From an uncultured Planctomycetota bacterium (GTDB taxonomy: Bacteria > Planctomycetota > Planctomycetia > Isosphaerales > Isosphaeraceae), in contig CAWJTV010000031.1 of the NCBI GenBank assembly GCA_963845755.1, positions 128,001 to 192,000 on the forward strand: a stretch of DNA of 64,000 nucleotides. Direction: 5' to 3'. The position numbers and the translations under genes were made by a program. This document shows positions 34,501-53,840 of the stretch, in pieces; positions within the stretch are counted from its first letter, which is position 1; every line of letters starts with the position of its first letter. The notes beneath the pieces were generated by a model. It had not been told where the DNA came from and searched no databases. It saw only the letters and a program-made list of their open reading frames with translations.

Positions 34501-34927
34501 AAATATTCACGTACATCAGCATGCTCGGCACGACCTGGCTGACGAGGATCCCCTCGCGCACCACCAGGGGCGGGAGCTGGAAGAGCACGATGTTGACCCG
34601 GTTTTGCACGTTCACGACATTGATATTGGGATCCGTGCCCGGCTCGAAGTAGATGATGATCGCCGCCTCGCCGGCACTCGAGGCGGAGGAGGTGATGAAG
34701 CGCATGTTCTGAACGCCATTGATGGATTGCTCCAACGGGATCAGAACCGATTCGACCAGGACATTGGCGCTGGCGCCGGGATAGGAAATGGAGACCATCA
34801 CGGTCGGCGGCGCGATGTCGGGGAACTGTGCGATCGGCAGGGTCTTGATCCCCAGCACCCCCAGGAATAAGAGGATAGTTGAGATGACGATCGCGAGTGC
34901 CGGTTGATGGAGGATTTTTGTGAACAT
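31550..34927 (-). CDS. RND (HAE1-type) efflux permease, copy B
   Basis: LPIAQFPDIAPP, GVVVDDAIVVVE, GKNAILIVEF, RFRPIQMT. Confidence 0.95.
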   Translation of the reverse strand: MFTKILHQPALAIVISTILLFLGVLGIKTLPIAQFPDIAPPTVMVSISYPGASANVLVESVLIPLEQSINGVQNMRFITSSASSAGEAAIIIYFEPGTDPNINVVNVQNRVNIVLFQLPPLVVREGILVSQVVPSMLMYVNIYSTDPNADQKDLFNFANVYVMPRLKRIKGMGIPRNLGNRIFAMRVWLNPDRMRAYNLSSEDVMKALSEQSVIGSPGRLGQATGRTSQSKEYVLTYIGRFNKPEQYESIILKANPDGEILRLKDVAQVELGPQFFDIYSDINGRPAASIVLKQAPGSNAAEVIEEIKKELQLIKKESFPPGMDYEFAYDVSKFLDASIEKVLHTLLEAFILVSLVVYMFLGDLRSTLIPTLAVPVSLVGTFFVLRLMGLSINLITLFAMVLAIGVVVDDAIVVVEAVHAKMAQKHLSPYRATMEVVHEISGAIIAITLVMTSVFVPVTFIPGAVGTFYRQFGITMATSIILSGLVALTLTPVLCAMILKPHSPTGTDSHTNDTDPNTPTSDTGTDSPTSHVERPRGLGVKLLFALGGLLVLGGITYLAYELWGPVGFLLILLPLVRGPFDRAVEKVTGGYAAIVRRIATRRTLTMAVVGGFAAGIVLVNTQLPTGFIPGEDQGIIYAVLQTPPGSTLEYTNDKSQELEKIAKEIEEVTSVTSLAGYEVLTEGRGSNSGTCIINLKTWADRTRTARQIIVDLEEKCRRMSNVKLEFFEPPAVPGFGTAGGISLLVLDKTFSADYQHLGEVTEKFMAALKKRKEVTNLFTFYAANYPQYELIINKDMAYQKGVSIKAAMDSLNILIGSTWEQGFILFNQFYKVFVQARPEFRRYPEDLENLFVKNDQGEMVPYSAFITREKRQGLNGITRYNLFTSAAIQCAPAAGYSTGQAIQAIKEVGVETLPRGFDVGWSGLSYDESKKGNEAIYIFLIVVAFVYLVLVGQYESFILPLAVILSLPVGLFGSFFFLQAMGLANDVYAQIGLVMLVGLLGKNAILIVEFAVQRRLEGVSLQEAAVEGAKLRFRPIQMTSFAFIAGLLPLVVASGAGAIGNRTIGTTGAGGMLVGTVIGVLVIPGLYYLFGQLDGGRKLLKDETHSPLSEVFEHNPEDGHNEQES

Positions 34928-34971
34928 GGTTCTAGAATAATCTCCTCGGGTTCCGTATCAGGAAGCGGTTG

Positions 34972-36837: not shown

Positions 36838-37153
36838 GGCCCTTACTGCTCCTGGCGGGTTCGCGGCCGGTTAACATCCACACCTCGGGCGAGAAATCTC
36901 CGATGGCCAGGTTCCTTGCTGTAGACTGCGAAGGAAACGGGCAAATGCACGTCGGATGACGCGATTTCACGAGCATTGCCGGGAGGCACCTCGGCCCGGC
37001 CGATCGTGCGGGCACCCGGGCGACGGTCGATGACGGCGCGCAGTCCCTCGGGGCGATAGCCGGGCCGATCACGGACCTGATGGGAACGTTCGGCCATCCC
37101 CCCCCAACGATCGCGCCCGCGTGATGAGGACGACGCTGGTCGGGGGTATAGTC

Positions 37154-37540
37154 TCAGCAGCGGCGCGGTCGGGCCACTAGCGAGACAGCGTAGGTGAGCC
37201 GTGGGGAGTAAGGCTCGGGACAGGGAGAGGGCAGTACGTCGAAGGATACGGAAGCCAGCGGGGATTTTACGGTCAGTTCATCCTCAATATCGGCGTCCAG
37301 TTCGTCCTCGATATCGGACTGGAGGGAGTCCGCCTCCCTCAAGGAGGGGCGGGCCGACATCGCAAATTGGCCGCTGTACCCATTATTGAGGATGACGAAG
37401 TTGCGCGGGAGGTAGTCGGGAGAGGTGGCTGTAGGGTATGACCCGGTGAGCCGAATCGGTGAACACATCACCGTCAGCAGCAGCGCCACGGCCGCCAGGA
37501 TGCGAATCCCATGATCGACGAAGCGTCCCATCATCGTCAT
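37154..37540 (-). CDS. Small exported hypothetical protein preceding the adaptor gene
   Basis: Signal-like segment, SPIR..DYLPRNF, acidic stretch, ends RPRRC; paralog at 42917. Confidence 0.65.
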   Translation of the reverse strand: MTMMGRFVDHGIRILAAVALLLTVMCSPIRLTGSYPTATSPDYLPRNFVILNNGYSGQFAMSARPSLREADSLQSDIEDELDADIEDELTVKSPLASVSFDVLPSPCPEPYSPRLTYAVSLVARPRRC

Positions 37541-37777
37541 TCAGGTCCCGGGTGCGGTGAAAGGCTCAGAATCCATGCAGCCAGAACACGTACCGGCTAG
37601 CATCAAATCTCAACTTTACCAACGGTTTGGATTGTTGGCTTGTCTGACATTCGCTGGCAGGGCCCATCAAAAAATGCAAGGCTCAACGCGCAATTCGCGG
37701 ATTTCAGCAGGAGTATTGTAGTTCGCGTGAACGTTCTGTCAAGCTTGTTCGCACAGGACGGCAGAACCAGCAGGAGG

Positions 37778-40700
37778 CTACACGTGAACGTGATCGTGTT
37801 CTTCTTCTGCTTCGGCTCGGTGTCCGGCAACCTCACTCAGTGGTCCATGGGTCTCGTCCTTGAGGAGTTTGCGTCCGCCGTCCAGTTGCCCGAATAAATA
37901 ATACAGGCCGGGAATGACCAAGACTCCGATCACCGTGCCCACCAGCATGCCGCCGGCTCCCGTCGTGCCGATGGTTCGGTTGCCGATCGCCCCGGCGCCG
38001 CTGGCCACCACCAACGGAAGCAGACCCGCGATGAACGCGAACGACGTCATCTGAATCGGCCGGAACCGCAGTTTTGCGCCTTCGACCGCCGCCTCCTGGA
38101 GAGACACGCCTTCCAGCCGACGTTGGACCGCGAATTCCACGATCAAGATCGCGTTCTTGCCCAGCAGGCCGACCAACATCACCAGACCAATCTGGGCGTA
38201 CACGTCGTTAGCCAAACCCATGGCCTGCAGGAAGAAGAACGAACCGAAAAGCCCGACCGGCAGCGACAGGATCACGGCCAGCGGCAGGATAAAGCTCTCG
38301 TATTGCCCGACCAACACCAGATAGACGAACGCGACGACGATGAGGAAGATATAGACGGCCTCATTCCCCTTTCTTGACTCGTCATAAGAGAGACCCGACC
38401 AGCCGACGTCGAAACCGTGAGGCAGCGTCTCGAGGCCGACCTCCTTGATCGCCTGGATGGCTTGACCGGTGCTGTAGCCAGCAGCCGGCGCGCATTGAAT
38501 GGCGGCGGAGGTGTACAGGTTATACCGGGTGATCTCATTCAAACCCTGCTTCTTCTTGACCGTCATGAACGCGGAGTAGGGGACCATTGCCCCTTGGTCG
38601 TTCTTGACGAATAAGTTCTCCAGATCCTCGGGGTAGCGCCGGAACTCCGGCTTGGCCTGGACGAAGACCTTGTAGAACTGGTTGAAGCGAATGAATCCCT
38701 GCTCCCAGGTGCTGCCAATGAGGATGTTGAGGTTGTCCATCGCTGCCTTGATCGACACGCCCTTCTGATAGGCCATGTCTTTATTGATGATCAGCTCGTA
38801 CTGCGGATAGTTGGCGGCGTAGAAGGTGAACATGTTCGTCACCTCCTTACGCTTTTTCAGAGTGGCCATGAACTTCTCGGTCACTTCACCAAGATGCTGG
38901 TAATCCGCGGAGAACGTCTTGTCGAGGACGAGCATGGAGATACCCCCGGCGGTGCCGAAGCCGGGAACCGCGGGCGGTTCGAAGAACTCGAGCTTCACGT
39001 TGCTCATCCGGCGGCATTTTTCTTCGAGATCCACAATGATCTGGCGGGCGGTTCGCGTGCGGTCGGCCCAGGTCTTCAGGTTGATGATACAGGTTCCCGA
39101 GTTCGAGCCGCGGCCTTCGGTCAGGACTTCATAACCGGCCAACGAGGTGACGGAGGTGACCTCCTCGATCTCCTTGACGATCTTCTCGAGCTCCTGGGAT
39201 TTGTCGTTGGTGTACTCGAGCGTGGAGCCCGGAGGGGTCTGGAGGACGGCGTAGATGATGCCCTGGTCCTCGCCCGGGATAAACCCCGTCGGGAGCTGCG
39301 TGTTGACAAGAACGATACCGGCGGCAAAACCCCCGACGACGGCCATGGTCAGCGTGCGGCGCGTGGCGATCCGTCGCACGATCGCGGCATAACCGCCCGT
39401 GACCTTCTCGACGGCGCGGTCAAAAGGACCCCGCACCAACGGCAGAAGAATGAGCAGGAAGCCAACCGGCCCCCACAACTCATAGGCCAGATACGTGATT
39501 CCGCCCAGGACCAGCAACCCTCCCAGCGCAAACAGCAGCTTGACTCCGAGTCCGCGCGGCCTTTCCACGTGGCTCGTGTGGAGGTCAGGGTCGGTGCCGT
39601 TCGTGTGGGAGTCAGTGCCGGTGGGGCTGTGGGGCTTGAGAATCATCGCACAGAGTACCGGCGTCAGCGTCAGGGCCACCAGGCCGGACAGAATGATGGA
39701 CGTGGCCATCGTGATCCCAAACTGGCGGTAGAAGGTGCCGACCGCCCCGGGAATGAACGTCACCGGAATGAAGACGGACGTCATCACGAGGGTGATGGCA
39801 ATGATCGCGCCGGAGATCTCCTGCATGACCTCCATGGTTGCCCGGTAGGGCGATAAGTGCTTCTGGGCCATCTTGGCATGCACCGCCTCGACCACCACGA
39901 TCGCATCGTCCACCACGACACCGATCGCGAGTACCATCGCGAAGAGTGTGATCAGGTTGATCGAGAGCCCCATCAACCGCAAGACAAAGAAGGTCCCGAC
40001 CAGCGACACCGGAACCGCGAGTGTCGGGATCAGCGTGGATCGTAAATCCCCGAGGAACATGTAGACCACGAGCGACACCAAAATGAACGCCTCGAGTAGG
40101 GTGTGCAGCACCTTTTCGATCGAGGCGTCCAGGAATTTGGAGACGTCGTAGGCGAATTCGTAGTTCATCCCGGGAGGGAATGATTCCTTCTTGATCAGGT
40201 CGAGTTCCTTCTTGATTTCCTCGATCACCTCGGCGGCGTTGGAGCCGGGAGCCTGCTTGAGAACGATGGACGCCGCGGGATGCCCGTTGATGTCCGAGTA
40301 AATATCGAAGAACTGGGGACCCAACTCCACATCGCCAACGTCCTTGAGCCGCAGGATCTCCCCATCGGCATTTGCTTTTAGAATGATGCTTTCATACTGC
40401 TCTGGCTTGTTAAAGCGCCCGATATAGGTCAACACGTACTCTTTGGATTGCGACGTCTTCCCCGTGGCCTGGCCGAGTCGTCCGGGCGAACCAATCATGC
40501 TCTGTTCCGACAGAGCCTTCATGACATCCTCGGACGACAGGTTGTAGGCACGCATGCGGTCGGGATTCAGCCAAACCCGCATCGCAAAGATGCGGTTGCC
40601 GAGATTCCTGGGGATGCCCATGCCTTTGATCCGCTTGAGCCGGGGCATGACGAAGACGTTGGCAAAGTTGAAGAGGTCTTTCTGGTCGGCGTTTTTATCC

Positions 40701-41134
40701 GTGCTGTAAATGTTCACGTACATCAGCATGCTCGGCACGACCTGGCTGACGAGGATCCCCTCGCGCACCACCAGGGGCGGGAGCTGGAAGAGCACGATGT
40801 TGACCCGGTTTTGCACGTTCACGACATTGATGTTGGGATCCGTGCCCGGCTCGAAGTAGATGATGATCGCCGCCTCGCCGGCACTCGTGGCGGAGGAGGT
40901 GATGAAGCGCATGTTCTGAACGCCGTTGATGGATTGCTCCAACGGGATCAGAACCGATTCGACCAGGACATTGGCGCTGGCGCCGGGATAGGAAATGGAG
41001 ACCATCACGGTCGGCGGCGCGATGTCGGGGAACTGTGCGATCGGCAGGGTCTTGATCCCCAGCACCCCCAGGAATAAGAGGATGATTGAGATGACGATCG
41101 CGAGTGCCGGGCGATGGAGGATTTTTGTGAACAT
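37778..41134 (-). CDS. RND (HAE1-type) efflux permease, copy A
   Basis: Same motifs as copy B, near-identical sequence; C-tail EEEHDHVHV. Confidence 0.95.
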   Translation of the reverse strand: MFTKILHRPALAIVISIILLFLGVLGIKTLPIAQFPDIAPPTVMVSISYPGASANVLVESVLIPLEQSINGVQNMRFITSSATSAGEAAIIIYFEPGTDPNINVVNVQNRVNIVLFQLPPLVVREGILVSQVVPSMLMYVNIYSTDKNADQKDLFNFANVFVMPRLKRIKGMGIPRNLGNRIFAMRVWLNPDRMRAYNLSSEDVMKALSEQSMIGSPGRLGQATGKTSQSKEYVLTYIGRFNKPEQYESIILKANADGEILRLKDVGDVELGPQFFDIYSDINGHPAASIVLKQAPGSNAAEVIEEIKKELDLIKKESFPPGMNYEFAYDVSKFLDASIEKVLHTLLEAFILVSLVVYMFLGDLRSTLIPTLAVPVSLVGTFFVLRLMGLSINLITLFAMVLAIGVVVDDAIVVVEAVHAKMAQKHLSPYRATMEVMQEISGAIIAITLVMTSVFIPVTFIPGAVGTFYRQFGITMATSIILSGLVALTLTPVLCAMILKPHSPTGTDSHTNGTDPDLHTSHVERPRGLGVKLLFALGGLLVLGGITYLAYELWGPVGFLLILLPLVRGPFDRAVEKVTGGYAAIVRRIATRRTLTMAVVGGFAAGIVLVNTQLPTGFIPGEDQGIIYAVLQTPPGSTLEYTNDKSQELEKIVKEIEEVTSVTSLAGYEVLTEGRGSNSGTCIINLKTWADRTRTARQIIVDLEEKCRRMSNVKLEFFEPPAVPGFGTAGGISMLVLDKTFSADYQHLGEVTEKFMATLKKRKEVTNMFTFYAANYPQYELIINKDMAYQKGVSIKAAMDNLNILIGSTWEQGFIRFNQFYKVFVQAKPEFRRYPEDLENLFVKNDQGAMVPYSAFMTVKKKQGLNEITRYNLYTSAAIQCAPAAGYSTGQAIQAIKEVGLETLPHGFDVGWSGLSYDESRKGNEAVYIFLIVVAFVYLVLVGQYESFILPLAVILSLPVGLFGSFFFLQAMGLANDVYAQIGLVMLVGLLGKNAILIVEFAVQRRLEGVSLQEAAVEGAKLRFRPIQMTSFAFIAGLLPLVVASGAGAIGNRTIGTTGAGGMLVGTVIGVLVIPGLYYLFGQLDGGRKLLKDETHGPLSEVAGHRAEAEEEHDHVHV

Positions 41135-41187
41135 GGTCCGGGAACACTCCCGTAGTGTTCGGTGCCGAGAACGTCAGTGAGCGGCTG

Positions 41188-42546
41188 CTATTCCGCGTGG
41201 AATTTTTGGTTCTTAAGGGCCTCTTCCGGCTTACGAAACTCGTATTCCACCTTTCCGTCTTCCTCAATCTCCCGAACCCCTTCGAGAACGATCTTGTCTT
41301 TCACATCAATTCCGCTATTGATGACAAAAACGTCCTCCAGTTCGTGCTGGATGGTGATCAGGTGCCGCTTCGCCTTGTCATCCTCGCCGACGACCCAAAC
41401 GTATCGCTTGTCGAGGAGCTCGAACGTCGCCCGCTGTGGGATGACCAGAGCATTCTTGAGCGTTCGGTGGATCTGGATGGTGCCGGTCTGACCGTGACGC
41501 AGCAGGCCGTCCGGGTTCGGGAAATCCGCCCGGAACGGGATGTTCCCCATCGTGTTGTCGAATTGGCCCTCGATCGCACCGCTGCCGTTGCCCATCTTGC
41601 CGGGATACGGGAACTTATCCTGGTTCGCCAGCACGAGTTCGATTCTGTCCTCGGCCTCATGCTGCTTCCGGTGGGCCATGTATTCGAGGTATTGTTTCTC
41701 GGGTACGTTGAAATAGACCCACATCACGCTGTTATCGGACAAGGTCGTGAGGATGTCCCCCTCCTTGACCAGGCTGCCGAGCTGCTGGCGCTGGCGGTTG
41801 ACGATGCCGTCGAAAGGTGCCTTGACCTTGGCAAAGTTCAATTTGGCCTCCGCCACCTCTAACTTGGCCTGGGCCTTGGCCAGTTTGGCCTTGAACAGTG
41901 CCACCTCATTCGGAGAGATACCGTTTTTCTTGGCCAACGTCTCGGAATAACTTAACTCCATTTTCGCGAAGTTTTTCTCGGCCACCGCGGCTTCCCACTC
42001 TGCCTTGTAAAGAATTGCCAAGGTCTCGAACATCACCTCGCCCTCTTTCACTCGCTGGCCTTCCTTGATCAGGATGGACTTGAGATACCCGTCCTCCAGT
42101 GCACAGACATCAATATGTTGTCGCGAGTGGATCTGGCAGACATATTGCTGGGTGATGATGACCTCTTTTGAGATCGGGGTGGTGACCCAGATCTTCTGTT
42201 CCTCAGCATGGGCCTCCCCCTCGGGCTGGTGAGAATTCGATCCATGCTGCCCGACGATGCGCCCTTTTAATTTCTCGACGTGTACGCTCAGGGTATCAAG
42301 GTGCGCGTAAAGCGTGGAAGTGTTCAGCGACGGGATGTCCACGCGCATCTTGTACAGGCCGAAGACCCCGCCGCCGATCAGGGCGGCGACCAGCAACAAG
42401 GCCATCACCAGCCGTCCCGTGACGGACGACTTCTTGGCTCCAGCATGTTCGATGCGACCTTGGTCGATGGGCGAGCCGTTGAGCTCGATCGATCGATGAT
42501 CAACAAACGTCTCATTGACCATGCCGGACTCAGCAACCCGATTCAT
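41188..42546 (-). CDS. RND periplasmic adaptor (MFP) with complete alpha-hairpin
   Basis: AGGAG RBS before ATG at 42546; TM anchor; IKEGQRVKEG...KAPFDGIV; FRADFPNPDGLLRHGQ. Confidence 0.9.
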   Translation of the reverse strand: MNRVAESGMVNETFVDHRSIELNGSPIDQGRIEHAGAKKSSVTGRLVMALLLVAALIGGGVFGLYKMRVDIPSLNTSTLYAHLDTLSVHVEKLKGRIVGQHGSNSHQPEGEAHAEEQKIWVTTPISKEVIITQQYVCQIHSRQHIDVCALEDGYLKSILIKEGQRVKEGEVMFETLAILYKAEWEAAVAEKNFAKMELSYSETLAKKNGISPNEVALFKAKLAKAQAKLEVAEAKLNFAKVKAPFDGIVNRQRQQLGSLVKEGDILTTLSDNSVMWVYFNVPEKQYLEYMAHRKQHEAEDRIELVLANQDKFPYPGKMGNGSGAIEGQFDNTMGNIPFRADFPNPDGLLRHGQTGTIQIHRTLKNALVIPQRATFELLDKRYVWVVGEDDKAKRHLITIQHELEDVFVINSGIDVKDKIVLEGVREIEEDGKVEYEFRKPEEALKNQKFHAE

Positions 42547-42916
42547 TGCAAGGCTCCTGTTCGACTCTACTCGACGCTGTCCCGATATCTTGGGCAAGAA
42601 AACGCGGTGTGGAATTGGAGGGATTCGAGTACGGAAGGCGATCCGACTCGGTTCGAGGCCGTGGGAGGCGAGGTGGCGCCTGCAAACGCGGGATGATCTT
42701 CTGACCAGGTCGTCGATCGTGGACGTCGGCGTCTGGGTGAGGCCGAACCGACATCCATGAGGGACGTCGAACCCATGCCAGGACCTGGACATTGGCGAGG
42801 CACGGATTGGCCGAGTCGGCGACGTTGATTGCACACCATCCCTCTGGCCGGGCCTGGACGACGCATGAACGACCGGCGACACATCGGCCGGTAATCCGGC
42901 GGCCATCAGAGTACGA

Positions 42917-43282
42917 TCAACAGCGGAGAGGGTAAAGGGAGAGGATCGAGTGGGGGGCGACTAACTGGCGATCGGCGACCTTGCGGAAGGAACAAGGGAT
43001 TAGTAAGGCAACCCGAGGCCCGTCCAGAGCATCAGCCCGCTCCTGCTCTTCACTTTCGGAAGGAAGGGCATCCACCTCCAGGACAGCGTCGGTCGCCATC
43101 GCTGCGCTGAGGTCGGTCGTAGGTTGGCCCAGGGGTAGGACGAAATTACGGCGGAGGCAATCGAGCCGGGTCGAGAAGGAGACGAACCCCGTTGTCCGGA
43201 TCGGCGCAACCAGCACCGACCCCAGTAGCGCCAGCAAGGATGCGAGCCAGAGCGTGGAGGCGAGGCTTTTACGGTCGGGCAT
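42917..43282 (-). CDS. Small exported hypothetical protein preceding the adaptor gene
   Basis: Signal-like segment, APIR..DCLRRNF, acidic stretch, ends YPLRC; paralog at 37154. Confidence 0.65.
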   Translation of the reverse strand: MPDRKSLASTLWLASLLALLGSVLVAPIRTTGFVSFSTRLDCLRRNFVLPLGQPTTDLSAAMATDAVLEVDALPSESEEQERADALDGPRVALLIPCSFRKVADRQLVAPHSILSLYPLRC

Positions 43283-43518
43283 AGCCCTTCGCTTCTCGAG
43301 CGTCGTGATTTGAGGCTGACTCGCCCGCCTTCGGCGAGGTGACCCTCGATCAGGTTGCTTCGCGAATTCTCCGGCTGGCCGGGTGAAACCCACGGCCTCG
43401 TAATATATATACTCTGAATCGACGCGCGAAGGGACCCCAAAATTCCGGACAAACAACACACGATATCCAAGTCGTAAAATTTATAGCTTCGCTATCGACG
43501 GAAGTCAAGAGACGGCGC

Positions 43519-43848
43519 ATGGTTGTTCGAAACATGATAAACGATCCCGGATGGACATTCCTGAGTAACCACGCCCGCGTGCTACGTTTCATCGCAAAAG
43601 AGTCCGAAGTGCGCCTCCGAGAAGTGGCACATCGGGTGGGGATTACCGAGCGGGCCGTCCAACGGATCGTGGCCGAGCTCGAGGAGGGAGGTTACCTCTC
43701 ACGTTCGCGCGCGGGGCGGCGGAATCGCTACGAGGCGCACCTGGACCGCGCGATGGGGCATTCGGTCGAGTCGCGCCGCGAGGTGGGCGTGCTCCTCAAC
43801 CTCATCCTCCGGCCCGGCCAACCCGATTTGGGAGGCCCGGAGAGCTGA
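43519..43848 (+). CDS. Winged helix-turn-helix regulator (MarR/AsnC-like)
   Basis: WTFLSNHARVL..RLREVAHRVGITERAVQRIVAELEEGGYLSR..GRRNRY. Confidence 0.88.
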   Translation: MVVRNMINDPGWTFLSNHARVLRFIAKESEVRLREVAHRVGITERAVQRIVAELEEGGYLSRSRAGRRNRYEAHLDRAMGHSVESRREVGVLLNLILRPGQPDLGGPES

Positions 43849-44040
43849 CACAGGTCGCGACGAACCTCTCTGGGGCTCGTCGGGAACTGGTCCGAGAGAT
43901 CCCCGGTCGCGACCCGGATCCTCGCCAACCAACGCTTGCAGGGCGTCGAACCCGCATGAGCGATGGACCTGGAAGGCCGTCGCCTGGTCAGTCGCCCCCA
44001 CGCAGAACCCAGGCCTTCTTGTTGTGCTCTCGCCAACCGG

Positions 44041-45930
44041 TCACTTCCCCGACGTCGCCGGCATCGGCGACTCGGCGGGGGGTGTGCTGCCGCCGGTGTC
44101 GTTGACGGCGGGTTCTTGGGTCCCCTGCTGGCCGAACGGGCCAGGCATGCCCGCGGGTGGTGGCGCGGGCGGGAGCGGGGCGAGGTTCCCCGGTTCGGCG
44201 ACGGGCACCGTCTCGGGGCCGGGCGGGGCAACCGCGGGGGCCTCCTCGATCAGGGCCGGGTCGAGCTGATTGACCGGAGGGATGATGATCGTGTCGCCGA
44301 CGGTCAGGCGATCGAAGGCGGGGACGGCATCCTTGTTCGCCTCCCAGAGGGCCTTGCCATACCGGCTCGACCTGTAGTAGAGCAGAGAGATCGTCCGGAA
44401 GTTCTCGCCGGCGCGGACCGTGTGGGTGTACGGGAATTGACCGTGAAAGTCTGTCGGAGTTGAAATCGTCACCACACCACCACCGAGGGTTTGATAGGTT
44501 CTTACGATGGCAGACAGTTGCTCCGTCTTGGTGTCGATCAAGACCACTCTCGCATCCCTGAGGTCACGCTGGGAGAAAAGCACGTCGATGTATTCGATGC
44601 GGGCATTCTGAAAAAGATCCTCGGCGAATTGGACTGCGGAATCGAGCGTTTTCAACTGCTGTTTCTTGATCTCGATGCTGTTGCTGAAGTTCTCCACCAT
44701 GGACACGCTGTTGATAACCTGGGTAAAAGCCTCGAGGATGACGCGCTGGTAGTTGTAGATGGCCTGCAATTGCCTGGCGTTCGCGTCGAGGTACTGGGCC
44801 CTGATCGCTCTCTTGTTGACCAACGGCCCGACCAGGCCACCGGCGATACTGCCAAGTACGGCGTTCGGCTCGAACAGATGATTGAGGAGGAGGGACTGGA
44901 GGCCAACGCCGCTGGCGATCACCAGTTGAGGAAAGAAGTTGACCCGGGCGACCCTCACGTCGAGACCCGCGGCCGCCAGCTCGCGCTCGGCTTGGCGGAT
45001 ATCGGGGCGGTTCTGGAGCAGCTGCGAGGGGAGTCCGATGCTCAGCGGGTGAATTTTCAGATCGTAGAATCCCGAAGAATCGCGTTCGACACGCTGCGGG
45101 TAGCGATTGACGAGGAAGTTGATCCGGTTTTCGCCCTGGATGATCGCCTGATTAATGATCAACTTTTCGCTGTAGTTCCTTTGAACCTCGGCCTGGAAAC
45201 GCAGGACAGCCAGCTCGGTGCTGCGGGCTGCTTCCTTCCTGGCCTTGGCGATCTCGAGGCTTCGCTGGTTGAGCTCGATGATTTGATCCAGATTCTCAAG
45301 CCGTTTGTCGAGCCCCATGAGCCTGTAAAAATTCTCGGCAATGTCTGCGATCAGAGTGGTCACGAAGTAGTTCCGCTTCTCACTGGCGGCGACGTAGCGC
45401 TGCGCCGCCGCGTCCCTGGCATTCCGCAACTGCCTGTAGATGTCCACCTGCCAGGTGAGGTTGAGGCCCGTCCCGAAATTTCCCGACGGATTGGTAAAAT
45501 GCTTCCCGGGGAGATACGGGTCGTCGAGTATGCCGGCTCCTTCTTCCGTGAAGCGGCTGTATCTGTACAGCCCCGTGCCGGCCGCGACACTGACGAAGGG
45601 AAGATACGCCCCTGACCGCGCCAGAACTTCGTTGCCGGCGATCTGGACCTCCTCATTCAGGACCTTCAGCTCCCGATTGTCGAACAATGCCTTTTCAATT
45701 AAATATGTAAGCATGCGATCATTATAAAACTCTTCGATCCCGAGCTGAGACGAGTTTTCCGAGCTGGTCTCTCCCTTGAAGTCGGTCGGCAGGCCTGGTC
45801 CCGGTTCCGGATGACGGAGAGGGGGGATTCCGCAGGACGGCAGAACTAGCAGCATGATGGCGCAAGTGATCGCTCTTGTAATCACGCGCTTTATGTGCTT
45901 TGTGTTCGAAAGCCTCATGAACTGGTTCAT
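44041..45930 (-). CDS. TolC/NodT-family outer membrane factor lipoprotein with C-terminal LysM-like domain and Pro-rich tail
   Basis: Lipobox LVLPSC; PSQLLQNRPDIRQAERELAAA, YQTLGGG; then HTVRAGENFRTISLLYY...LWEANK...LTVGDTIIIP. Confidence 0.88.
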   Translation of the reverse strand: MNQFMRLSNTKHIKRVITRAITCAIMLLVLPSCGIPPLRHPEPGPGLPTDFKGETSSENSSQLGIEEFYNDRMLTYLIEKALFDNRELKVLNEEVQIAGNEVLARSGAYLPFVSVAAGTGLYRYSRFTEEGAGILDDPYLPGKHFTNPSGNFGTGLNLTWQVDIYRQLRNARDAAAQRYVAASEKRNYFVTTLIADIAENFYRLMGLDKRLENLDQIIELNQRSLEIAKARKEAARSTELAVLRFQAEVQRNYSEKLIINQAIIQGENRINFLVNRYPQRVERDSSGFYDLKIHPLSIGLPSQLLQNRPDIRQAERELAAAGLDVRVARVNFFPQLVIASGVGLQSLLLNHLFEPNAVLGSIAGGLVGPLVNKRAIRAQYLDANARQLQAIYNYQRVILEAFTQVINSVSMVENFSNSIEIKKQQLKTLDSAVQFAEDLFQNARIEYIDVLFSQRDLRDARVVLIDTKTEQLSAIVRTYQTLGGGVVTISTPTDFHGQFPYTHTVRAGENFRTISLLYYRSSRYGKALWEANKDAVPAFDRLTVGDTIIIPPVNQLDPALIEEAPAVAPPGPETVPVAEPGNLAPLPPAPPPAGMPGPFGQQGTQEPAVNDTGGSTPPAESPMPATSGK

Positions 45931-47036
45931 CCGCCTCGTCCTTGAGGAGTTGCGCTCGTCGGCAATCTCGCCGAAGAAGAAATAGTCGATCAACTCCTGG
46001 CTCGTGCACGGCCCATTCATGAGCGTCCTCAGCGAATGGTCGAACAGGCCATGCCCGCGGAGAACTATATATTGATCGACCAGGGCGGGTTGTGACTTTA
46101 GTAGCGGATTGCGCGATTGGGAAAAATGACCGGATCCCCCGGCGCTGAAATCGGAAACATCCCAGCTTTCGCATTTTAGCAATTGCCGGGTTCCAAATAC
46201 GACGCAATTTCGAGGGGCACACGTTCGCTAATCTGGCTCCGGGGCAATCGAAGCGGCCCTTGAGGGCTGGACTAACATCGGGCGTACCCTTGATATCTCG
46301 GCCAGCGCACGTCGAGGCAAGGTCGTACTGAAGTGATGTCAACGCTGATCGACCTCATCGATTATTCGACGATCTCACAGGAACTCTCTGGAAAAGCCAT
46401 TACGTCATCTGACATGCCCCTTTACCCCGTCGGCCGCCAGGCTGCGGACCGATTCTCCGACTCCCGGTGCCGCCTTTTCCCACGCGCTCAGTTCAAGCCC
46501 GAATCGCCACCGTTTTTCATGGCGTGCTGCGTCCGTGCGTCCGTGGTTGTATTGTGACTCGGTCGCAATTCGTCATGACTCGCCCGGTACTCACTCAAGC
46601 CTGGAATTGGGACGTACTCGCCGGACCATCTCCTCGACCCACCGAGGAAGAATCTGAGACGACCCTCTTGATTCCGACGATAACCGGTGTTAGAAGCATT
46701 TCTTTCGCTGAGCGATGAGATTTGTGTCGGTTTTGAATATGTGCGAAAACGCCGCATCGGCGCCGATTGCCGATGAAACCGCATCTCCTGAGTTTTGGCC
46801 GCGCGTTGTTGCACCACCAGGCTGTGATGCAATGCGGAATTGGTGGTACCAGAGGATCGGGAATTCCCTCAAGAATAATGGACGTCCCAACGATGCGCGA
46901 GTGCCAAGATCACAGGACGACGTGCAACATTCCTTGACGCGTCGGTGTACTGGTCGGCTGCCGGTGACTTTCGGGACAGCGAGCCGCTGCCTTGTGGGAT
47001 CAAGCGGTTGATCGAACGAGAACGGGCAGATTCCTG

Positions 47037-47900
47037 ATGGGACCGCTAGAACTCGTCAAACTGGATCGCCTCATGGATCGTTCGAGCGGGAGGTCTGAGA
47101 TCGTGGTTGCCTTGATCGACGGCCCGGTTGTCATCGATCATCCGGGCTTTGCCGCCGGTAACGTGCGCGAGATGGTCGGAACGCGAAATGCAGCCTGCGT
47201 TCGCTCCGCGAGCGCAGCTTGCCTGCATGGAACATTCGTGGCGGGCATACTCTTCGCGAGACGAGGATCAGCAGCACCAGCCATTTGTCCGGCGTGCACT
47301 CTATTGGTACGGCCGATTTTTGGGGAGACCCCCGCCTCGAACGAAGAGATGCCAAGAGCGACTCGGGAAGAAGTGGCGACAGCGATTACCGAATCTGTTC
47401 AAGCCGGAGCGAATGTGATCAACCTCAGTGCGGCATTCGCCAGACCGTCATCGCGAGGTGAACGCTCGTTGGAACTGGCGTTGGATTATGCGGCCAGGCG
47501 GGAAGTTCTGGTTGTCGCGGCCGCAGGAAATCAGGGAACGGTCGGCAGTTCAGCCATCACCCGTCATCCGTGGGTGATCGCCGTGATCGGCTGCGATCAG
47601 GACGGCAGGCCCACGGCGGAGTCGAACCTGGGAAGATCCATCGGCAGCCGAGGGTTGGCCGCTCCGGGACAGAACATCACCAGCCTGGGGACAGACGGAA
47701 GGCCCCAAACGTCCGGCGGTACCAGTGCGGCAGCTCCGTTCGTCACCGGCGCGATCGCCTTGCTCTGGTCGGAGTTTCCCGGTGCCAGCGCCGCCCAACT
47801 CAAGCTGGCCTTGACCCAGGCCGGCCAACCACCGAGAAGAACCATCGCGCCCCCCCTCTTGAATGCCTGGGCAGCGTATGAAGCTATGGCCATCAATTAA
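47037..47900 (+). CDS. S8 subtilisin-like peptidase, PatA/PatG-like protease domain, no signal peptide
   Basis: Triad ALIDGPV (Asp), HGTFVAG (His), GGTSAAAP (Ser); oxyanion AAGNQG. Confidence 0.9.
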   Translation: MGPLELVKLDRLMDRSSGRSEIVVALIDGPVVIDHPGFAAGNVREMVGTRNAACVRSASAACLHGTFVAGILFARRGSAAPAICPACTLLVRPIFGETPASNEEMPRATREEVATAITESVQAGANVINLSAAFARPSSRGERSLELALDYAARREVLVVAAAGNQGTVGSSAITRHPWVIAVIGCDQDGRPTAESNLGRSIGSRGLAAPGQNITSLGTDGRPQTSGGTSAAAPFVTGAIALLWSEFPGASAAQLKLALTQAGQPPRRTIAPPLLNAWAAYEAMAIN

Positions 47901-47915
47901 CCTGGAGGCAGCCCC

Positions 47916-48116
47916 GTGGACCGGCAATTCGACTCGACAAGCGATCGCCAACAGCACCCGACACATCAAGTACGGCTTCCCGGCTTCCTGATCGAAGAAG
48001 AAATCGGGCTCGGCGACGTGATCAAGAAAGCAACCTACGCCATGGGCATCAGGCCCTGCGGCGACTGTGAAAGGCGCGCGGCGGTCCTGAACCGCTGGAT
48101 GACCTTCTCTCGATGA
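47916..48116 (+). CDS. Small CxxC protein in the protease operon
   Basis: GGAGG RBS with GTG start; VRLPGF..EIGLGDVIKKAT..GIRPCGDCERRAAVLNRW. Confidence 0.75.
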   Translation: MDRQFDSTSDRQQHPTHQVRLPGFLIEEEIGLGDVIKKATYAMGIRPCGDCERRAAVLNRWMTFSR

Positions 48117-48145
48117 CAACGGCAACATACAGGAGGGCAACCACG

Positions 48146-49087
48146 ATGGCGCAATCTCAAGCGGAACTTCAAGAGCAAACCGAAACAGCATCACCTCTCC
48201 GGGATGACCCTCCGGCAGCCGTTGCACGTGCCTTCGGCGCCCCGGCCGGTGCCATCTCCCCACAGGCCTGCGCGACTTGCGGAACCGCGATCGCCAGCAA
48301 CGGTGGTCCCGTAACTCCAAGCACCTGGCTCTATGCGATCGGCAACATCGAGGCGCGCTTCCCGTCGCTTTCCCTGGAGAAGGAGTTCGCCCAGGCCACT
48401 GGCCGCGACAACACGTCGGGGCTCACCGACAGACAAGTGTTTCAGGCCGTGCTCTCCAAGCCCGAGAACCGCTACCTGGCGCGCCAGTGCTGCTACATCA
48501 TGATGATCGGTGGGCTCGACACTTACATCCTGGTGCCACGCGAGTACTGGGACGTGGCTCTGCTCGTGGGAACCATCCGCGCCAACCCCAGTCCGATGGA
48601 TCTGGACGTGGTCATCGGCACGAAGGGGCAGATTGCTCCGCCGCAGAAGTGCAACGGTTTGCTGCTTCCCGTCGTGGTCTTCGACCAGCTCTACTCATTC
48701 GACCGCGATGCCTTGATCAAGTCGATCCCGAAGCCGGAGAAGATTTCCGCCAAGGACTTTGCGCCTGCCGCCGAAGAAGTGTTCGACCGCGTCATGCAGA
48801 TCGCCGACAACGCGGGTGCCACCGACGAGCATCGCGCCTTGAACTACCTCGCCGTGCGTTACCCGGCGATCTACGCGAAGGCCGCCGAGTACTTCGCGCA
48901 GAATTGTTCGCTCACGGCGGTGGACGTCCAGGGGTCTCCGCTCAGTGGCGCGCGCAACGTGCTGGACGTGATTTTCTCCTACACCAACCGTAACACCGAC
49001 GTGCTGGAGAAGTGCTTTGTGCGGGTTGACGTGACCGACGAGTTCCCGTTCCTGGTCACCAAGCTGTCACCGTATTACGACCGGTGA
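48146..49087 (+). CDS. Stand-alone PatA/PatG C-terminal-domain protein
   Basis: AGGAGG RBS; LYAIGNI, ADNAGATDEHRALNY, RVDVTDEFPFLVTKLSPYYDR terminus typical of cyanobactin protease C-terminal domains. Confidence 0.82.
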   Translation: MAQSQAELQEQTETASPLRDDPPAAVARAFGAPAGAISPQACATCGTAIASNGGPVTPSTWLYAIGNIEARFPSLSLEKEFAQATGRDNTSGLTDRQVFQAVLSKPENRYLARQCCYIMMIGGLDTYILVPREYWDVALLVGTIRANPSPMDLDVVIGTKGQIAPPQKCNGLLLPVVVFDQLYSFDRDALIKSIPKPEKISAKDFAPAAEEVFDRVMQIADNAGATDEHRALNYLAVRYPAIYAKAAEYFAQNCSLTAVDVQGSPLSGARNVLDVIFSYTNRNTDVLEKCFVRVDVTDEFPFLVTKLSPYYDR

Positions 49088-49118
49088 GACACCCAAAATC
49101 GAGCAGGAGGTACGTACG

Positions 49119-49430
49119 ATGAGTTTTCCCGGATTTGGTGCGCAGAATTCGCTTTACAAATCGACCGGCTCTTACTGGATGGCCGGAAGTTTTGACCACG
49201 CTCAAGGAATCATCCCACAAACGATCACCTGTGGGCCGTGCCAATTGCAGAACAACGCGTGCGTGCGCCAGTGCACTATCTGTATCTTCCACAAGTGTCC
49301 TCCTGGTACGATCAATAGTTGCGACCCCGGCGGTTGCACGACCACGATCGAATCGTGCGCGTCCAGCCAATGTCCACCACCACCGCCGCCGCCGCCGTGC
49401 TGCCCCGCGGGCTGTCAGGGGACATGTTGA
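49119..49430 (+). CDS. Cys-rich putative precursor peptide (leader plus 14-Cys core)
   Basis: AGGAGG RBS; Cys-free 34-aa leader MSFPGFGAQNSLY...GIIPQ; core with 14 Cys and a Pro8 run. Confidence 0.8.
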   Translation: MSFPGFGAQNSLYKSTGSYWMAGSFDHAQGIIPQTITCGPCQLQNNACVRQCTICIFHKCPPGTINSCDPGGCTTTIESCASSQCPPPPPPPPCCPAGCQGTC

Positions 49431-49692
49431 GCCGACTTTGCGAGTTGTCATTTTGCGGCCGTGGGCCCGAGGGCACCCGAAGGGTCTCCTACTTCGGGCT
49501 CCACGTGTCCTCCCCCTCAATTCAAAGAATTTCGCAACACCTGCTTCGGGCAAACCGGGCGGCCACGGCCCGGTTGCCACACATTCGGGTGACTCCGTAC
49601 CACTAATTTCGAAAAGCCTGTACGCCGTGCACGAATTCATAACGTCTCGAGGTACAAGAGGTTGGGTCGGCAGAAGGCATCGAAGCATTCTT

Positions 49693-50008
49693 CTCTGTGC
49701 CCTCTGTGACTCTGTGGTGAGTCTCTTTTGATTGGTTGGTTGCGGCTCGGCCGCGCTGTGTTCAATTCGACCGAAGGCCCCCTCGGGCTAACGGTCGGCA
49801 TTCAAGATGAGAGCGCTTCAGGCCGGGGTCGCGCAGACCCGATACAAACCCGCTTCGTCAGCGAGGGTAATGCCGTCGAACCTTCGCTGAAGCTACGGGT
49901 TCGTATGAGTGTCCGGCTCATAGGCCCAGATTGGTGAATGATCTCTCGTGTAGGGCGAATGCAACCCATCATAACCCCAACTTGAATGGTGGGTTGCACC
50001 CATCCCAC
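49693..50008. repeat. Cluster of REP-like elements
   Basis: CTCTGTG three times (49693, 49702, 49710); inverted repeat 49842-49906; GTAG-led inverted repeat 49950-50008. Confidence 0.6.
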
Positions 50009-50166
50009 AAACCCGCAGGCGGGAGCAATTACCGATTTCGGCCGATGAGCCGCTTCTTCTTTCCCTCGCGCCCCGCCCGTTTTTCCGTGGCCTCTCGCTT
50101 GCGCTTCGACTTGGCTTGCCTTCGTTTCTTGTTCGACCTTGAAATCAGTTCCACAGTCTGCAACCG

Positions 50167-50922
50167 CTATTCGTCGCCATGCTGCGGCGGAGACTTGCCC
50201 ACGCGTTTGATTAAACGCGGGTACGTGACGGTCGGGATCGCTTTCTCGATCCGATCGATCTGAACCTGATGATACCATTCATCACCGGGGTCGAACCAGT
50301 AACCGAAGACACGGCCCTGCTTCAGATTCAGGTCGTCCAGCTTCGTCTGACCGGCGTCTCCTTCCGCTTTCTTCCGTGTTTGCGGACCGGGACCTCCATA
50401 ATTGGGTCCATCGGGATCGAACGGACGCTTGCCGAACTGGAATTCGTACTGAGAGTCGTCACGACGGTCATACGCCTGGAAGATGGCCTCATGCAGTTGT
50501 CCGAGTGTTTGGTCGCCTCGGATTTCGATCGCACGGCTGATTCGCGTGTTGGCGAACTTCTTACTGATTGGCCCACTCATCAAGAAGACCGAGACAACGT
50601 AGAGGTTCGTCGGAGGCGTTGCCGGGCCCTCGGCAGCGCGTCTCGGTTGGTCGGGAGAACGCGTCGGAGTCGTCGTCTGCTTGCGACTGTTCCAAGCCGG
50701 AATCTCGTCCTCAGGGACCAGAACCTGGAGCGAACGGGCCTGGCCGGGATGGCGCAGGATCAGCCCTTTCTTCTCGAGCATCTTCACCATCTGGTTCACC
50801 GAAGGCGGTGAGACGCAAAGGGCCGCCGCGATCTCCGATTCGGCAGGCGGGTATCCGTGCCGATTGATGTAGGCGAGAATGAACGAGAGATAACGACCTT
50901 GAGTCGGCGTGAAGTCAGCCAT
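50167..50922 (-). CDS. LexA/MarR-like HTH fused to a pRiA4b ORF3-like domain
   Basis: FTPTQGRYLSFI..HGYPPAESEIA..VSPPSVNQMVKMLEKKG; IEIRGDQTLGQLHEAIF..YWFDPGDEWYH..YPRLIKRVGKSPPQ. Confidence 0.8.
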   Translation of the reverse strand: MADFTPTQGRYLSFILAYINRHGYPPAESEIAAALCVSPPSVNQMVKMLEKKGLILRHPGQARSLQVLVPEDEIPAWNSRKQTTTPTRSPDQPRRAAEGPATPPTNLYVVSVFLMSGPISKKFANTRISRAIEIRGDQTLGQLHEAIFQAYDRRDDSQYEFQFGKRPFDPDGPNYGGPGPQTRKKAEGDAGQTKLDDLNLKQGRVFGYWFDPGDEWYHQVQIDRIEKAIPTVTYPRLIKRVGKSPPQHGDE

Positions 50923-51153
50923 AACATCGTTTCCGTCATGGGTGTGAGGCCAAGGTTGCGGTTTCCATGCTGGCTCGCCAATGACGCGATTCCACATCAT
51001 GAGAGCGACGGCTTCCCGAACGACCATTCAATAACGGATTCCAGTGTGCATGCGAATCGTCGAACGGCTTGAACGAGGAAAACGACCCGGCGTACATTGG
51101 GTTCTGCCGGTGACGTCAGAATCCCCATTCAAAGCTGCGCGGGTCGCCTCACG

Positions 51154-53840
51154 ATGCACGAACTGACAATCACACCACAAGGGCATCTCCTGGTTCGAGA
51201 AACGTCTCTCGATACTCCGGATCGGAAACTCTCGAAGGCGATGCTCGAGGCGTACCGTGAAAGTCCGGCCCGAGGAATGCTCTACTCTGCAAGTGCAGAG
51301 ATCGAAGCGGCGCTGCCGTCGTCTTTCGAGTTCGCACGATCGATCGCGCGCCTTTATCTCACGGACCTCTGCAAGGCCGCAACGGGCGAACCCGGCGAAT
51401 CCATCCCCGCACTCCCGCCTCCCGCGGCCGACCTCGAGCTTGCCATGAGGCAGGCGCCTCCGATGATCGGGCTGGAGTACCTGACACCGGAAGTCCTTTC
51501 GAATTGGTGGCAAGACCTCGATTCTCTCACACGGAGCGAAGTCGGAAAGCACTCCGGAGGAGCTCAAGGCTATCTGCGGGAGCGCAATCCTCATTGGCGT
51601 TTTGTCGGCCGTGTGACGTTTCATCTGGCCGAGAACAAGAGGGACCCCGAGTACCCGTTCGCGTTCCTGGCCACATTTGCCAACGGTCTGACACCGCAGG
51701 GAAAAGTGAAGCACGAACCGCTGGGGCGGGCGCTCCAGCAGTATGCCGGCGATCAGAACCGCGCGGCAATGCTGAATTTATTGCTCCCCATTTCGAAAGC
51801 CGCCGAATCCTCGGAATTGATTCGACGACTCGTCAACTCCGAGCAAATCTACCACCCCCTCGCGTGGACGCCGAGGGCTGCCTACGAATTCATCCAGGCG
51901 ATACCCCTCTTTGAATCCAGCGGTTTGATCGTACGGTTGCCAGACTGGTGGAATGCCCGGAAGCCGCTCCGGCCACTCGTCAGTGTGAAGATCGATTCGA
52001 AGAATTCGGCCGGCATCGGCGTCGATGCGATGATGCAATTCTCGATCGGCATGAGCCTCGAAGGAGAAACGCTCAGCCCCGATGAGATCGCTCGATTGCT
52101 CGAATCGACCGGGGGCCTGGTCCCGTTGAAAGGTAAGTGGGTCGAAGTGGATCCGGAGAAGTTGAAGCAAGCCCTCGAGCATTGGAAGGGCGTCGAGAAA
52201 GACGTCCGCCGGGAGGGTATCTCCTTCTTTGAAGGAATGCGTCTCCTCTCCGGAGCGAATCTCGCCCAAGAGGAAGACGGCAAGAGCCAGGCGGCGATTC
52301 GCGAATGGTCGGGTCTGACCGCCGGCGCCGAACTGGAGGAGATCCTCAAGGGCCTGCGTTCACCGGAGACCCGAAAGGAGAAGGCCCCCCCCGATTTGAA
52401 AGCGGACCTTCGCCCGTATCAGCAGACAGGCTACGCCTGGTTGCGATTCGTCGCTCGCCTGGGTCTGGGAGGCTGCCTGGCCGACGATATGGGCCTCGGC
52501 AAGACCGTGCAGGTGATCTCTCTGCTGCTCGATCTGAAGCGCGCAGGCCGAAGAACGCGAGCCTGCTCGTCGTGCCGGCGTCGCTGATCGCGAACTGGAA
52601 ATCCGAGCTGGCGAAGTTCGCGCCAAGTCTTTCTTTCGCCGTAGCCCATCCTTCGGAAGTGAAAGCAAGCACCGCTGAAGCCGGACTCGCGAATGCCGAC
52701 ACGTTCGATTTGATTATCACCACGTATGGCATGCTCGTCCGCACGGACTGGATCAAGCAGCATCGCTGGCAACTCGCGATCCTCGATGAGGCCCAGGCGA
52801 TCAAGAACTCCGGCACGAAGCAGACCCGAGCGTCGAAGGAATTGACCGCCGCCAGTCGGATCGCTATGACCGGCACGCCCGTCGAGAATCGCTTGTCGGA
52901 CCTCTGGTCGCTCTTCGATTTCTTGAACCCCGGATTGCTCGGATCCGCCAGGGAATTCAGCTCGTTCGTCAAACGCCTCCAGAACGCAGAGCCTCCCTCG
53001 TTCGAACCGCTGCGCAATCTCGTACGACCCTACATCCTGCGGCGGCTGAAGACCGACAAGCGGGTGATCTCCGATCTCCCGGATAAGACGGAGGTGAAAG
53101 CCTATTGTGCGCTGAGCAAGCACCAGGCTGCCCTTTACCAGTACGCAGTCGATGATCTCGCGGAGCAGTTGAAGGGTTCCGACGGGATCCAGCGTCGGGG
53201 GATCGTCCTGGCCCAACTGATGCGGCTGAAGCAGATTTGCAATCATCCCGCCCAGGTGGCCGGCACCAACGACTTCGCGGCCGAGCAGAGCGGCAAGTTT
53301 CGCCGGCTGGCGGAGATCGCCGAAGAGATCGCTTCCCGGCAGGAGAAGGTCCTCGTTTTCACGCAGTTTCGAGAGATCGCCGACCCGCTGGCTGGGTTCC
53401 TCGCCACGCTTTTCGGCCGATCCGGGTTGGTGCTCCACGGGGGGACGAGCGTCAAGAAGCGGAAGGAGTTCGTCGATCAGTTCCAACGCGAAGAGGGGCC
53501 GCCTTTCTTCGTATTGTCGCTGAAAGCGGGCGGCACCGGGCTGAACCTGACGGCGGCTTCGCACGTAATACACTTCGACCGCTGGTGGAACCCGGCGATC
53601 GAGAATCAGGCGACCGACCGCGCCTTTCGGATTGGCCAGAAGAAGAACGTGCTGGTCCATAAGTTCATCTGCCGGGGAACCGTCGAGGAACGGATCGACG
53701 AAATGATCGCGCGGAAAAGCCAGGTCGCAGGCGAAGCAATCGGTGGAGAAGACTCGGGCGAAGTCTTGCTGACAGAAATGGACAACGATACGTTACTGAG
53801 GTTCGTGAAGCTGGATTTGCACCAGTCGACCGCAGAGTGA
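51154..53840 (+). CDS. SNF2-family helicase (frameshift near 52550)
   Basis: LRPYQ, LADDMGLGKT, ILDEAQAIKN, TGTPVENRL, SLKAGGTGLNL, QATDRAFRIGQ. Confidence 0.93.

Follow-up and report, generated by a model that had tools for sequence, protein, structure and literature searches.

We analysed a 64,000-nucleotide (nt) stretch of DNA (the window) from an uncultured Planctomycetota bacterium of the Isosphaeraceae (GenBank assembly GCA_963845755.1, contig CAWJTV010000031.1, positions 128,001 to 192,000), in which four co-oriented open reading frames (ORFs) at 47037-49430 encode an S8 serine protease, a small CxxC protein, a stand-alone version of the domain of unknown function (DUF) of cyanobactin proteases and a Cys-rich precursor peptide. 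For the proposed mechanism as a whole, we consider it probable that these genes form a mobile, minimal system of the ribosomally made, post-translationally modified peptide (RiPP) type for polymorphic, disulfide-rich miniproteins. The window peptide is a single member of a kind that forms large hypervariable arrays in other loci. A scan of species genomes gave 272 stretches with a DUF relative and the best 80 were fetched; all 80-locus counts below thus apply to loci selected for a close DUF. We found no description of the system in the literature, with subscription papers largely and supplements wholly outside reach.

The genes lie close together on the forward strand, as had been claimed from the sequence alone (hereafter the original prediction). 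They encode a PatA-type S8 protease (47037-47900; 287 amino acids (aa)), the conserved small protein (47916-48116; 66 aa, GTG start, no family match), the DUF protein (48146-49087; 313 aa, PatG_D plus PatG_C) and the precursor peptide (49119-49430; 103 aa, 14 Cys, the first 38 residues Cys-free). The ribosome-binding sites predicted for the last three genes are present (GGAGG or AGGAGG upstream of each). A clear site is absent before the ORF at 47037, yet the alignments of most homologs begin within its first few residues. Promoter and terminator scans gave results at chance level, and no RNA dataset is listed as containing the cassette. The order S8, small protein, DUF recurs in 65 of the 80 loci; of the remainder, five are without S8, four without the small gene, three without both and three stop at a contig edge. 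The separation of protease and DUF is thus not a frameshift, since a conserved gene lies between them. It does not define the system as had been supposed, because split and fused forms coexist and 76 of 83 longer homologs are S8-DUF fusions.

The precursors share a leader. A leader profile, seeded by a Cys-independent pattern, gave 260 matches of at least 8 bits in 83 stretches (the 80 loci and three from this genome); 236 score at least 13 bits, and the 232 that are closed and unique form the set used for statistics. A second leader pass gave 258 matches, with precursors in 75 of the 80 loci, and the expected co-occurrence of homologous proteases with such peptides is therefore borne out. Four of the five precursor-less loci have less than 170 nt downstream, and in the fifth (L070) a precursor was found by pattern. 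The leader consensus is MxxPGFTAEASLY with Tyr at +15 and V-x-P-Q, over a length of about 34 aa. In the window precursor, which scores 25.5 bits on this profile (the profile includes this sequence), the leader comprises residues 1-34 (49119-49220), with the PGF box at its start and the predicted cleavage site GIIPQ (49206-49220) at its end. The predicted core (49221-49430) has 69 aa, 14 Cys and a net charge of 0; a run of prolines precedes its last four Cys. The motif VxP[QASM] is present in 136 of the 232 precursors, at a median of 29 residues from the PGF box, against a mean of 15 and a maximum of 26 in 500 shuffles.

Leaders contain 0.5% Cys and cores 14%. The cores are hypervariable, with a median length of 47 aa, and fall into 140 dissimilar families, some of which turn up in different phyla. 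A conserved leader and a hypervariable core beside a dedicated protease are what is generally taken to characterize a RiPP system. NCBIfam gave no match for any of 57 leaders, nor for the window peptide, in line with the prediction that no PatE-like precursor is encoded. Atlas matches of the window precursor were all under 0.9, and its core has no family match and no solved relative. Pfam recognized Stig1 in four of 139 family representatives with at least four core Cys and nothing in the other 135, and an MXAN_6577-like domain was above cut-off in one of 13 picked precursors. The Stig1 and MXAN_6577-like families are extracellular Cys-rich proteins.

It is scarcely credible that the small ORFs are not substrates, being instead chance neighbours or decaying debris beside a housekeeping subtilase. 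RefSeq-derived tables, which are incomplete, give no precursor gene in two plasmid loci, and some precursors are truncated, but the leader matches in 75 loci and the motif and parity statistics are far from random. In addition, all eight leader matches of at least 15 bits in this genome are clustered, with three of the four clusters lying by a DUF gene or fragment.

We observed even Cys counts in 197 of the 232 whole precursors, whereas for each of the other residues the count is even in 101-128 of 232. Counts are also even in 162 of 164 motif-defined cores and in 134 of the 140 families (the core being cut at a fixed distance). Because Cys counts are mostly even, we infer that the cores are disulfide-bonded. 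The original prediction left the product as disulfide-rich or metal-binding; parity favours disulfides without proving them, and metal binding fares less well. If the cores were cytoplasmic metal-binding proteins for Cu or Zn storage or detoxification, released by the same protease but with thiolates in place of disulfides, several features would fit: export or oxidation genes do not recur, all three helper proteins carry CxxC, CxxxC is enriched in cores (183 versus 118 +/- 9), and Nitrosospira and Methylobacter, both with a copper demand, are among the hosts. Two-coordinate Cu(I) could favour even Cys counts too. However, counts in the series 2, 6, 10 and so on occur as often as multiples of 4 (61 versus 66 families), cores contain fewer CxxC and CxC spacings than expected (83 and 84, respectively, versus about 124), and no metal transporter recurs alongside. 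The 140 dissimilar families and the swapping of cassettes also suit biological conflict better than housekeeping. We therefore regard metal-binding cores as distinctly unlikely.

The protease matches Pfam Peptidase_S8 at 91.8 bits (cut-off 21.8), and its closest solved relatives are the PatA-type domains 4h6v and 3zxx (E about 1e-30). The triad Asp28/His64/Ser230 is intact, as predicted, and present in 66 of 66 aligned sequences. A Cys54/Cys62 pair is specific to the family and not found in PatA (by alignment to the solved relatives); the two residues tend to vanish together (74 sequences with both, 7 with neither, 1 mixed; counts not corrected for relatedness). The protease also has Cys84-x-x-Cys87. 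On a hydrophobicity proxy, a stand-in for signal-peptide prediction, the window S8 scores 2.35, the family maximum, and this value comes from the strand before the catalytic Asp. PatA cuts after G(L/V)E(A/P)S (PMC10885120), which agrees with the precursor V-x-P-Q at P4, P2 and, loosely, P1. From the motif and the type of enzyme, we predict that S8 hydrolyses the precursor after V/I-x-P-Q/A, freeing a linear core without macrocyclisation.

Macrocyclisation of the core by the same protease, as in a stripped-down cyanobactin pathway, is very improbable. Both enzymes do belong to cyanobactin families, and some cyanobactins bear disulfides and are made without a heterocyclase (PMC4663559). However, the spacing between the catalytic Asp and His is 36 (35 in PatA 4h6v, counted on the alignment), compared with 84 in the macrocyclase PagG, where the cap occupies 59-98 (bioRxiv 10.1101/2020.03.17.996157). 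This leaves no room for a PatG-type capping helix-turn-helix, and none was identified between Asp and His of the window S8. A follower-like motif occurs in one of the 232 cores and not in that of the window, and the median core length of 47 aa exceeds the 3-20 aa of cyanobactin cores (PMC4663559). Against TIGR03895, the PatA/PatG cyanobactin maturation protease model with a cut-off of 421 bits, S8 scores 115 and the DUF 15.5, so that the two genes fall outside this class. Lacking from the window, as predicted, is a YcaO protein (none in 56 of 71 ORFs of at least 200 aa plus a MarR ORF; the remainder were scanned earlier or are overlapping frames). The genome likewise gave no YcaO match (88% complete; 5 of 14 controls positive) and none for PatB, a PatF-type prenyltransferase or a patellamide-type precursor, while no control genome gave matches to these three either.

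The identification of the 48146 protein as a PatG-like C-terminal region is confirmed by matches to PatG_D (101.6 bits, cut-off 27) and PatG_C (118.7 bits, cut-off 25.9). Its structural model (predicted local distance difference test (pLDDT) 81) fits the PatG DUF structure 4uvq with Z 20.5 and a root-mean-square deviation of 3.1 over 245 aligned residues. A search for solved DUF structures returned 4uvq alone (E 1e-5), and in fold searches (E 1.6e-14) it was the sole strong match, with OB-fold rows at an ordinary Z of 5-6 and no viral match at E<=0.001. No relative of the DUF was found in the viral contigs searched. Residues 1-55 are disordered and are followed by an OB-like N-terminal domain. 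Conservation is high up to the last residue, and the DUF is the most conserved part of the system. Cys116 and Cys169 are conserved and tend to be lost jointly (178 sequences with both, 10 with neither, 14 mixed; counts not corrected for kinship). The DUF also occurs in fusion with other domains, namely PF05908, Fic, glycosyltransferase and DUF676 (P0005, P0006, P0030, P0028, P0057, P0070).

In the disordered tail of the DUF, an ISPQ motif precedes Cys42-x-x-Cys45 (48254-48280). This is a predicted second cleavage site, which would expose the CxxC. CxxC or CxC is present in 67 of 72 DUF N-termini, with a loose cleavage motif before it in 60 of 72 (without a shuffle control), and by eye both motif and CxxC are retained in the linker of many S8-DUF fusions. 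Probably, then, S8 trims its partner DUF at the tail motif as well as cutting the precursor.

We propose that the precursor docks on the DUF through its PGF box and that the DUF works with S8, in trans in this genome and within one chain in the fused relatives. A complex model of DUF residues 58-313 with leader residues 1-34 scored 0.51, compared with 0.00 for the best of three controls; across the runs at least 22% of contacts were shared and partner pLDDT was at least 30. Of 157 solved complexes, 116 reach the mark used for such scores, as do 2 of 215 mismatches. We know of no comparable solved complex. The modelling thus weakly suggests docking of the leader on the DUF.

The small protein, predicted to form a beta strand, a helix, the CxxC and a second helix, carries a copy of the start of the leader. 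In its RLPGF motif (47973-47987), L21, P22 and F24 are invariant in 43 of 43 sequences, and R20 and G23 are at least 90% conserved. Cys48-x-x-Cys51 (48057-48068) is invariant in the same 43 and present in 99% of 68. The likeness to the leader amounts to five residues: comparison of the small-protein profile with the leader gave P=0.0009 with a probability of 23%, and the leader profile scores about 2 bits on the small protein. The LPGF copy may occupy the same docking site on the DUF, which would make the small protein an accessory regulator or redox partner, and a dispensable one. A fold search with its structural model gave Z<=2.3, and its Atlas matches are unnamed, phage-rich clusters below the recognition mark. 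The helical CxxC part (48006-48110) resembles a hypothetical protein of a Nonlabens phage over 35 aa (E 4e-4), and the gene of that protein (L091:3965-4324) sits near a terminase gene.

The shared tag can also be read differently. The leader could serve chiefly for targeting, and the DUF could assemble with itself into a scaffold for export, surface display or packaging, in which cargo, protease and small protein are gathered and oxidised before a late release by cleavage. In keeping with this, the leader is found on cargo from about 60 to more than 450 aa, Stig1-repeat proteins among them, the small protein bears the same LPGF tag, and the DUF is conserved to its end. The Cys pairs of S8 and of the DUF are each lost together, as would be expected of structural disulfides, although the covariation counts are not corrected for relatedness. 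However, PatG-DUF was monomeric on gel filtration (PMC4259220), the model of the DUF has 4uvq as its sole strong fold match, and no membrane component is conserved beside the genes. We find a scaffold role improbable.

Precursor arrays in related loci appear to grow at the 3' end of the DUF gene. Foreign copies of its last about 70 nt (49014-49087 in the window) precede further precursor genes. We identified 56 such remnants in 35 of the 80 loci, 44 of them followed by a precursor within 170 nt, and no matches in reversed loci. A remnant lies upstream of 37 of 150 later precursors at a median distance of 31 nt, similar to the 38 nt from the intact DUF to the first precursor. In one locus (L016), remnant repeat and peptide alternate four times. 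For the 48 remnants of at least 12 bits the median length is 70 nt; they are about 80% identical to the DUF of their own locus, with mismatches at 30-42% of third codon positions and 12-16% of first and second positions. This suggests that the remnants derive from other DUF alleles, in which case new precursor genes would be acquired by recombination at the DUF 3' end. Part of the same position-3 bias is given by local duplication and synonymous drift of the intact DUF. The window has one precursor and no remnant after the peptide.

Two further ideas about array growth were not supported. Polarised decay of the remnants looked clear in three loci (L003, L016 and L024), yet was not significant: the counts were 17 versus 7 pairs (p=0.064) and, by locus, 7 versus 2 (p=0.18), with a rank correlation of -0.02. 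Extra synonymous constraint on the last 25 codons of the DUF, as expected of a cis element or site-specific recombination site, was not found (p=0.24).

The 80 loci span seven phyla (Acidobacteriota, Pseudomonadota and Actinomycetota, plus single rows of four more), and a profile search gave 1938 clusters at 50% identity. Cultured hosts include Sinorhizobium mexicanum ITTG R7 (on a plasmid), Nitrosospira multiformis Nl12, Edaphobacter modestus DSM 18101 and Methylobacter luteus. The host of the window fits a planctomycete, with 163 DUF1559 matches in the genome, an expansion that we take to mark this group. Of the original prediction, the minimal, non-cyanobactin maturation system with a leader and a Cys-rich core in its precursor is supported, but the system does not belong to planctomycetes in particular: its distribution is patchy, with nearest relatives in Acidobacteriota. 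Among 40 relatives of this genome, one has a weak DUF match and the other 39 none. In a quick tree of the DUF the window falls among acidobacterial rows; we name no donor, since no starred branch holds the window. A same-genus genome matches the flanks at 88-96% identity and has nothing between about 45985 and 49600, although an empty site is not demonstrable because its flanks lie on different contigs. In cultured hosts the cassette is also plasmid-borne, in one case between a recombinase and a Tn3 transposase. From the patchiness, the congener lacking this stretch and the plasmid copies, horizontal gain is likely.

A second system is encoded in the same genome (G000:C14:49673-52521, L085). 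It has S8 and a DUF 57% identical to that of the window, no small gene, and three precursors with 6, 6 and 8 Cys. Elsewhere, one truncated precursor, a fragment of 95 codons from the 3' end of a DUF gene and a precursor with 8 Cys adjoin a transposase-like ORF (G000:C36:419812-420554, L086), and two precursor genes, one truncated, have no enzyme nearby (G000:C33:209616-210028, L087). The precursors at these last two places are possible trans substrates. In this genome, the four clusters hold eight of 16 leader matches of at least 9 bits and all eight of at least 15 bits.

Several observations weigh against the reading of a protease-released, disulfide-bonded miniprotein used in conflict. The main gap is the route by which precursors without a signal peptide would reach an oxidising place: oxidation and export are unexplained because a signal-less S8 should sit in the reducing cytoplasm, and the leaders are not hydrophobic. 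Among ORFs of at least 90 aa in the 80 loci, no transporter, disulfide-forming enzyme or modifying enzyme recurs, nor does an immunity gene or secretion apparatus (small or variable immunity genes would be missed). S8 is absent in 8 of the 80 loci although the contig continues, and with the query used no close S8 was found in three of five genomes with S8-less loci. The strict motif is missing in 96 of the 232 precursors and the loose one in 68. Parity is less distinctive when set beside 1602 unrelated Cys-rich frames, of which 63% have even counts compared with 85% of precursors under the same filter. The three DUF-leader runs scored 0.59, 0.00 and 0.51; passes at <=0.60 include only 18 of the 157 solved complexes and both mismatches, and a pass of this level is more often wrong than right unless the complex was likely beforehand. 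By nuclear magnetic resonance, PatG-DUF showed no binding of PatE (PMC4259220); PatE has a different leader from the PGF precursors. The median core charge is 0, with 10% of cores at +3 or more, and defensin spacing fits none of 65 six-Cys cores, which argues against classical antimicrobial peptides.

Also lacking from the 80 loci are a recurring second protease family (the window has one S8) and a membrane component or metal transporter conserved beside the genes. Once core genes, shadow frames and precursors are set aside, a transposase-like family in five loci (named by eye) makes up the largest cluster. Upstream, the window encodes two sets of RND efflux genes together with an outer-membrane factor that is extended at its C-terminus (31553-46182, minus strand). 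These RND/TolC genes were rejected as a candidate exporter, as they are directed away from the cassette and, among related loci, do not recur.

Among known systems, cyanobactin PatA/PatG (4h6v, 3zxx, 4uvq; TIGR03895; PF18047, PF18065) shares the S8 clade and fold and the DUF fold. Both lack a signal peptide and may have several hypervariable precursors per locus, and the G/A/S-V-x-P-small cleavage motif of the PGF precursors resembles G(L/V)E(A/P)S. In cyanobactin pathways PatA is the leader protease and PatG the macrocyclase, each with a C-terminal DUF, whereas here there is one protease, and in most cases the DUF is a protein of its own that carries a motif and a CxxC tail. There is no capping helix, follower, PatE leader or YcaO (optional in cyanobactins), each precursor has one long Cys-rich core in place of short ones, an additional LPGF/CxxC protein is encoded, and many non-cyanobacterial phyla are involved.

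Similarity to actifensin and the actinodefensins (NF038042; PMC6989792) lies in a leader of about 32 aa, a disulfide-only product, tandem precursors and a subtilisin-like protease. In actifensin loci there are ABC transporters and a single conserved six-Cys fold (PMC6989792), whereas here no transporter recurs, the leader is unrelated, the folds vary widely and are for the most part neutral, and the DUF is never missing. The window core, with 14 Cys and no match, falls outside the actinodefensin/CS-alpha-beta class. In Stig1 (PF04885) and MXAN_6577-like (NF041328) cargo, whose repeats occur in a minority of long cargo of related loci, the PGF leader replaces the signal peptide. To judge from its genes, the system would work like the PatA step and yield products like disulfide-only bacteriocins, while belonging to neither group.

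The arrays recall the polymorphic toxins CdiA, Rhs and MafB, in which arrays of alternative, variable orphan modules lie downstream, each behind a piece homologous to the conserved upstream gene (PMC4436062). Such arrays are present in related loci and not in the window. Here, by contrast, every module is a whole gene that brings its own ribosome-binding site and leader; the homologous piece comes from the 3' end of a helper gene and forms no part of a toxin, and no immunity genes or secretion system were seen. A role in biological conflict, as enzyme inhibitors or antimicrobials, is most likely for the products as judged from these patterns. A bolder reading, which we hold to be unlikely, sees here a broadly distributed candidate ancestor of the cyanobactin proteases and a polymorphic peptide system of a new kind. 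The DUF would be activated by the protease and act as a scaffold on which leaders dock; together with the small CxxC protein it would fold, oxidise and perhaps export disulfide-rich cargo of any kind with no Sec signal, Dsb partner or transporter, and hosts would exchange cargo genes through recombination at the 3' end of the DUF gene.

What the cyanobactin DUF does has been an open question ever since the structure was determined, binding of PatE not having been found (PMC4259220). The system may give it a role. Here the DUF stands alone, is the most conserved component and is encoded beside a two-motif leader; the question is therefore directly testable with three small soluble proteins. With 135 of 139 representatives outside any Pfam family, the precursors amount to a large, unmined reservoir of disulfide scaffolds from bacteria. 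They would have been discarded by a search for bacterial defensins in which a signal peptide was obligatory (PMC11561630). If the protease does accept almost any core after VxPQ, it could serve as a tool.

Some relatives depart from the common arrangement. One actinomycete PGF-leader precursor (L050:8872-9096) has a six-Cys core resembling arthropod defensin, just under cut-off; this hand-picked precursor scores 20.1 against actinodefensin NF038042 (cut-off 65). A Vibrio aquimaris replicon (L090:7671-9651) has two tandem distant DUF genes, with neither S8 nor a PGF precursor found within 18 kb, and a Photobacterium record has the DUF in two places as well. One relative encodes a distant S8 and DUF pair with 32% and 26% identity (G012:C6:14936-18565, L082), which looks closer to a broken fused form.

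DNA contigs from two soil runs, one of them maybe the source sample, cover parts of the cassette. Upstream of S8 is a 98-aa ORF without family match (46715-47011). On the 3' side of the precursor, at 49597-49764 and 49912-50064, are short intergenic elements with many copies in the same-genus genome. They are followed by a gene for a LexA-HTH/pRiA4b ORF3 fusion (50167-51027, minus strand), and this precedes a SNF2 helicase gene (51097-53840) that extends over two overlapping frames near 52300-52590, reflecting a frameshift or an assembly error.

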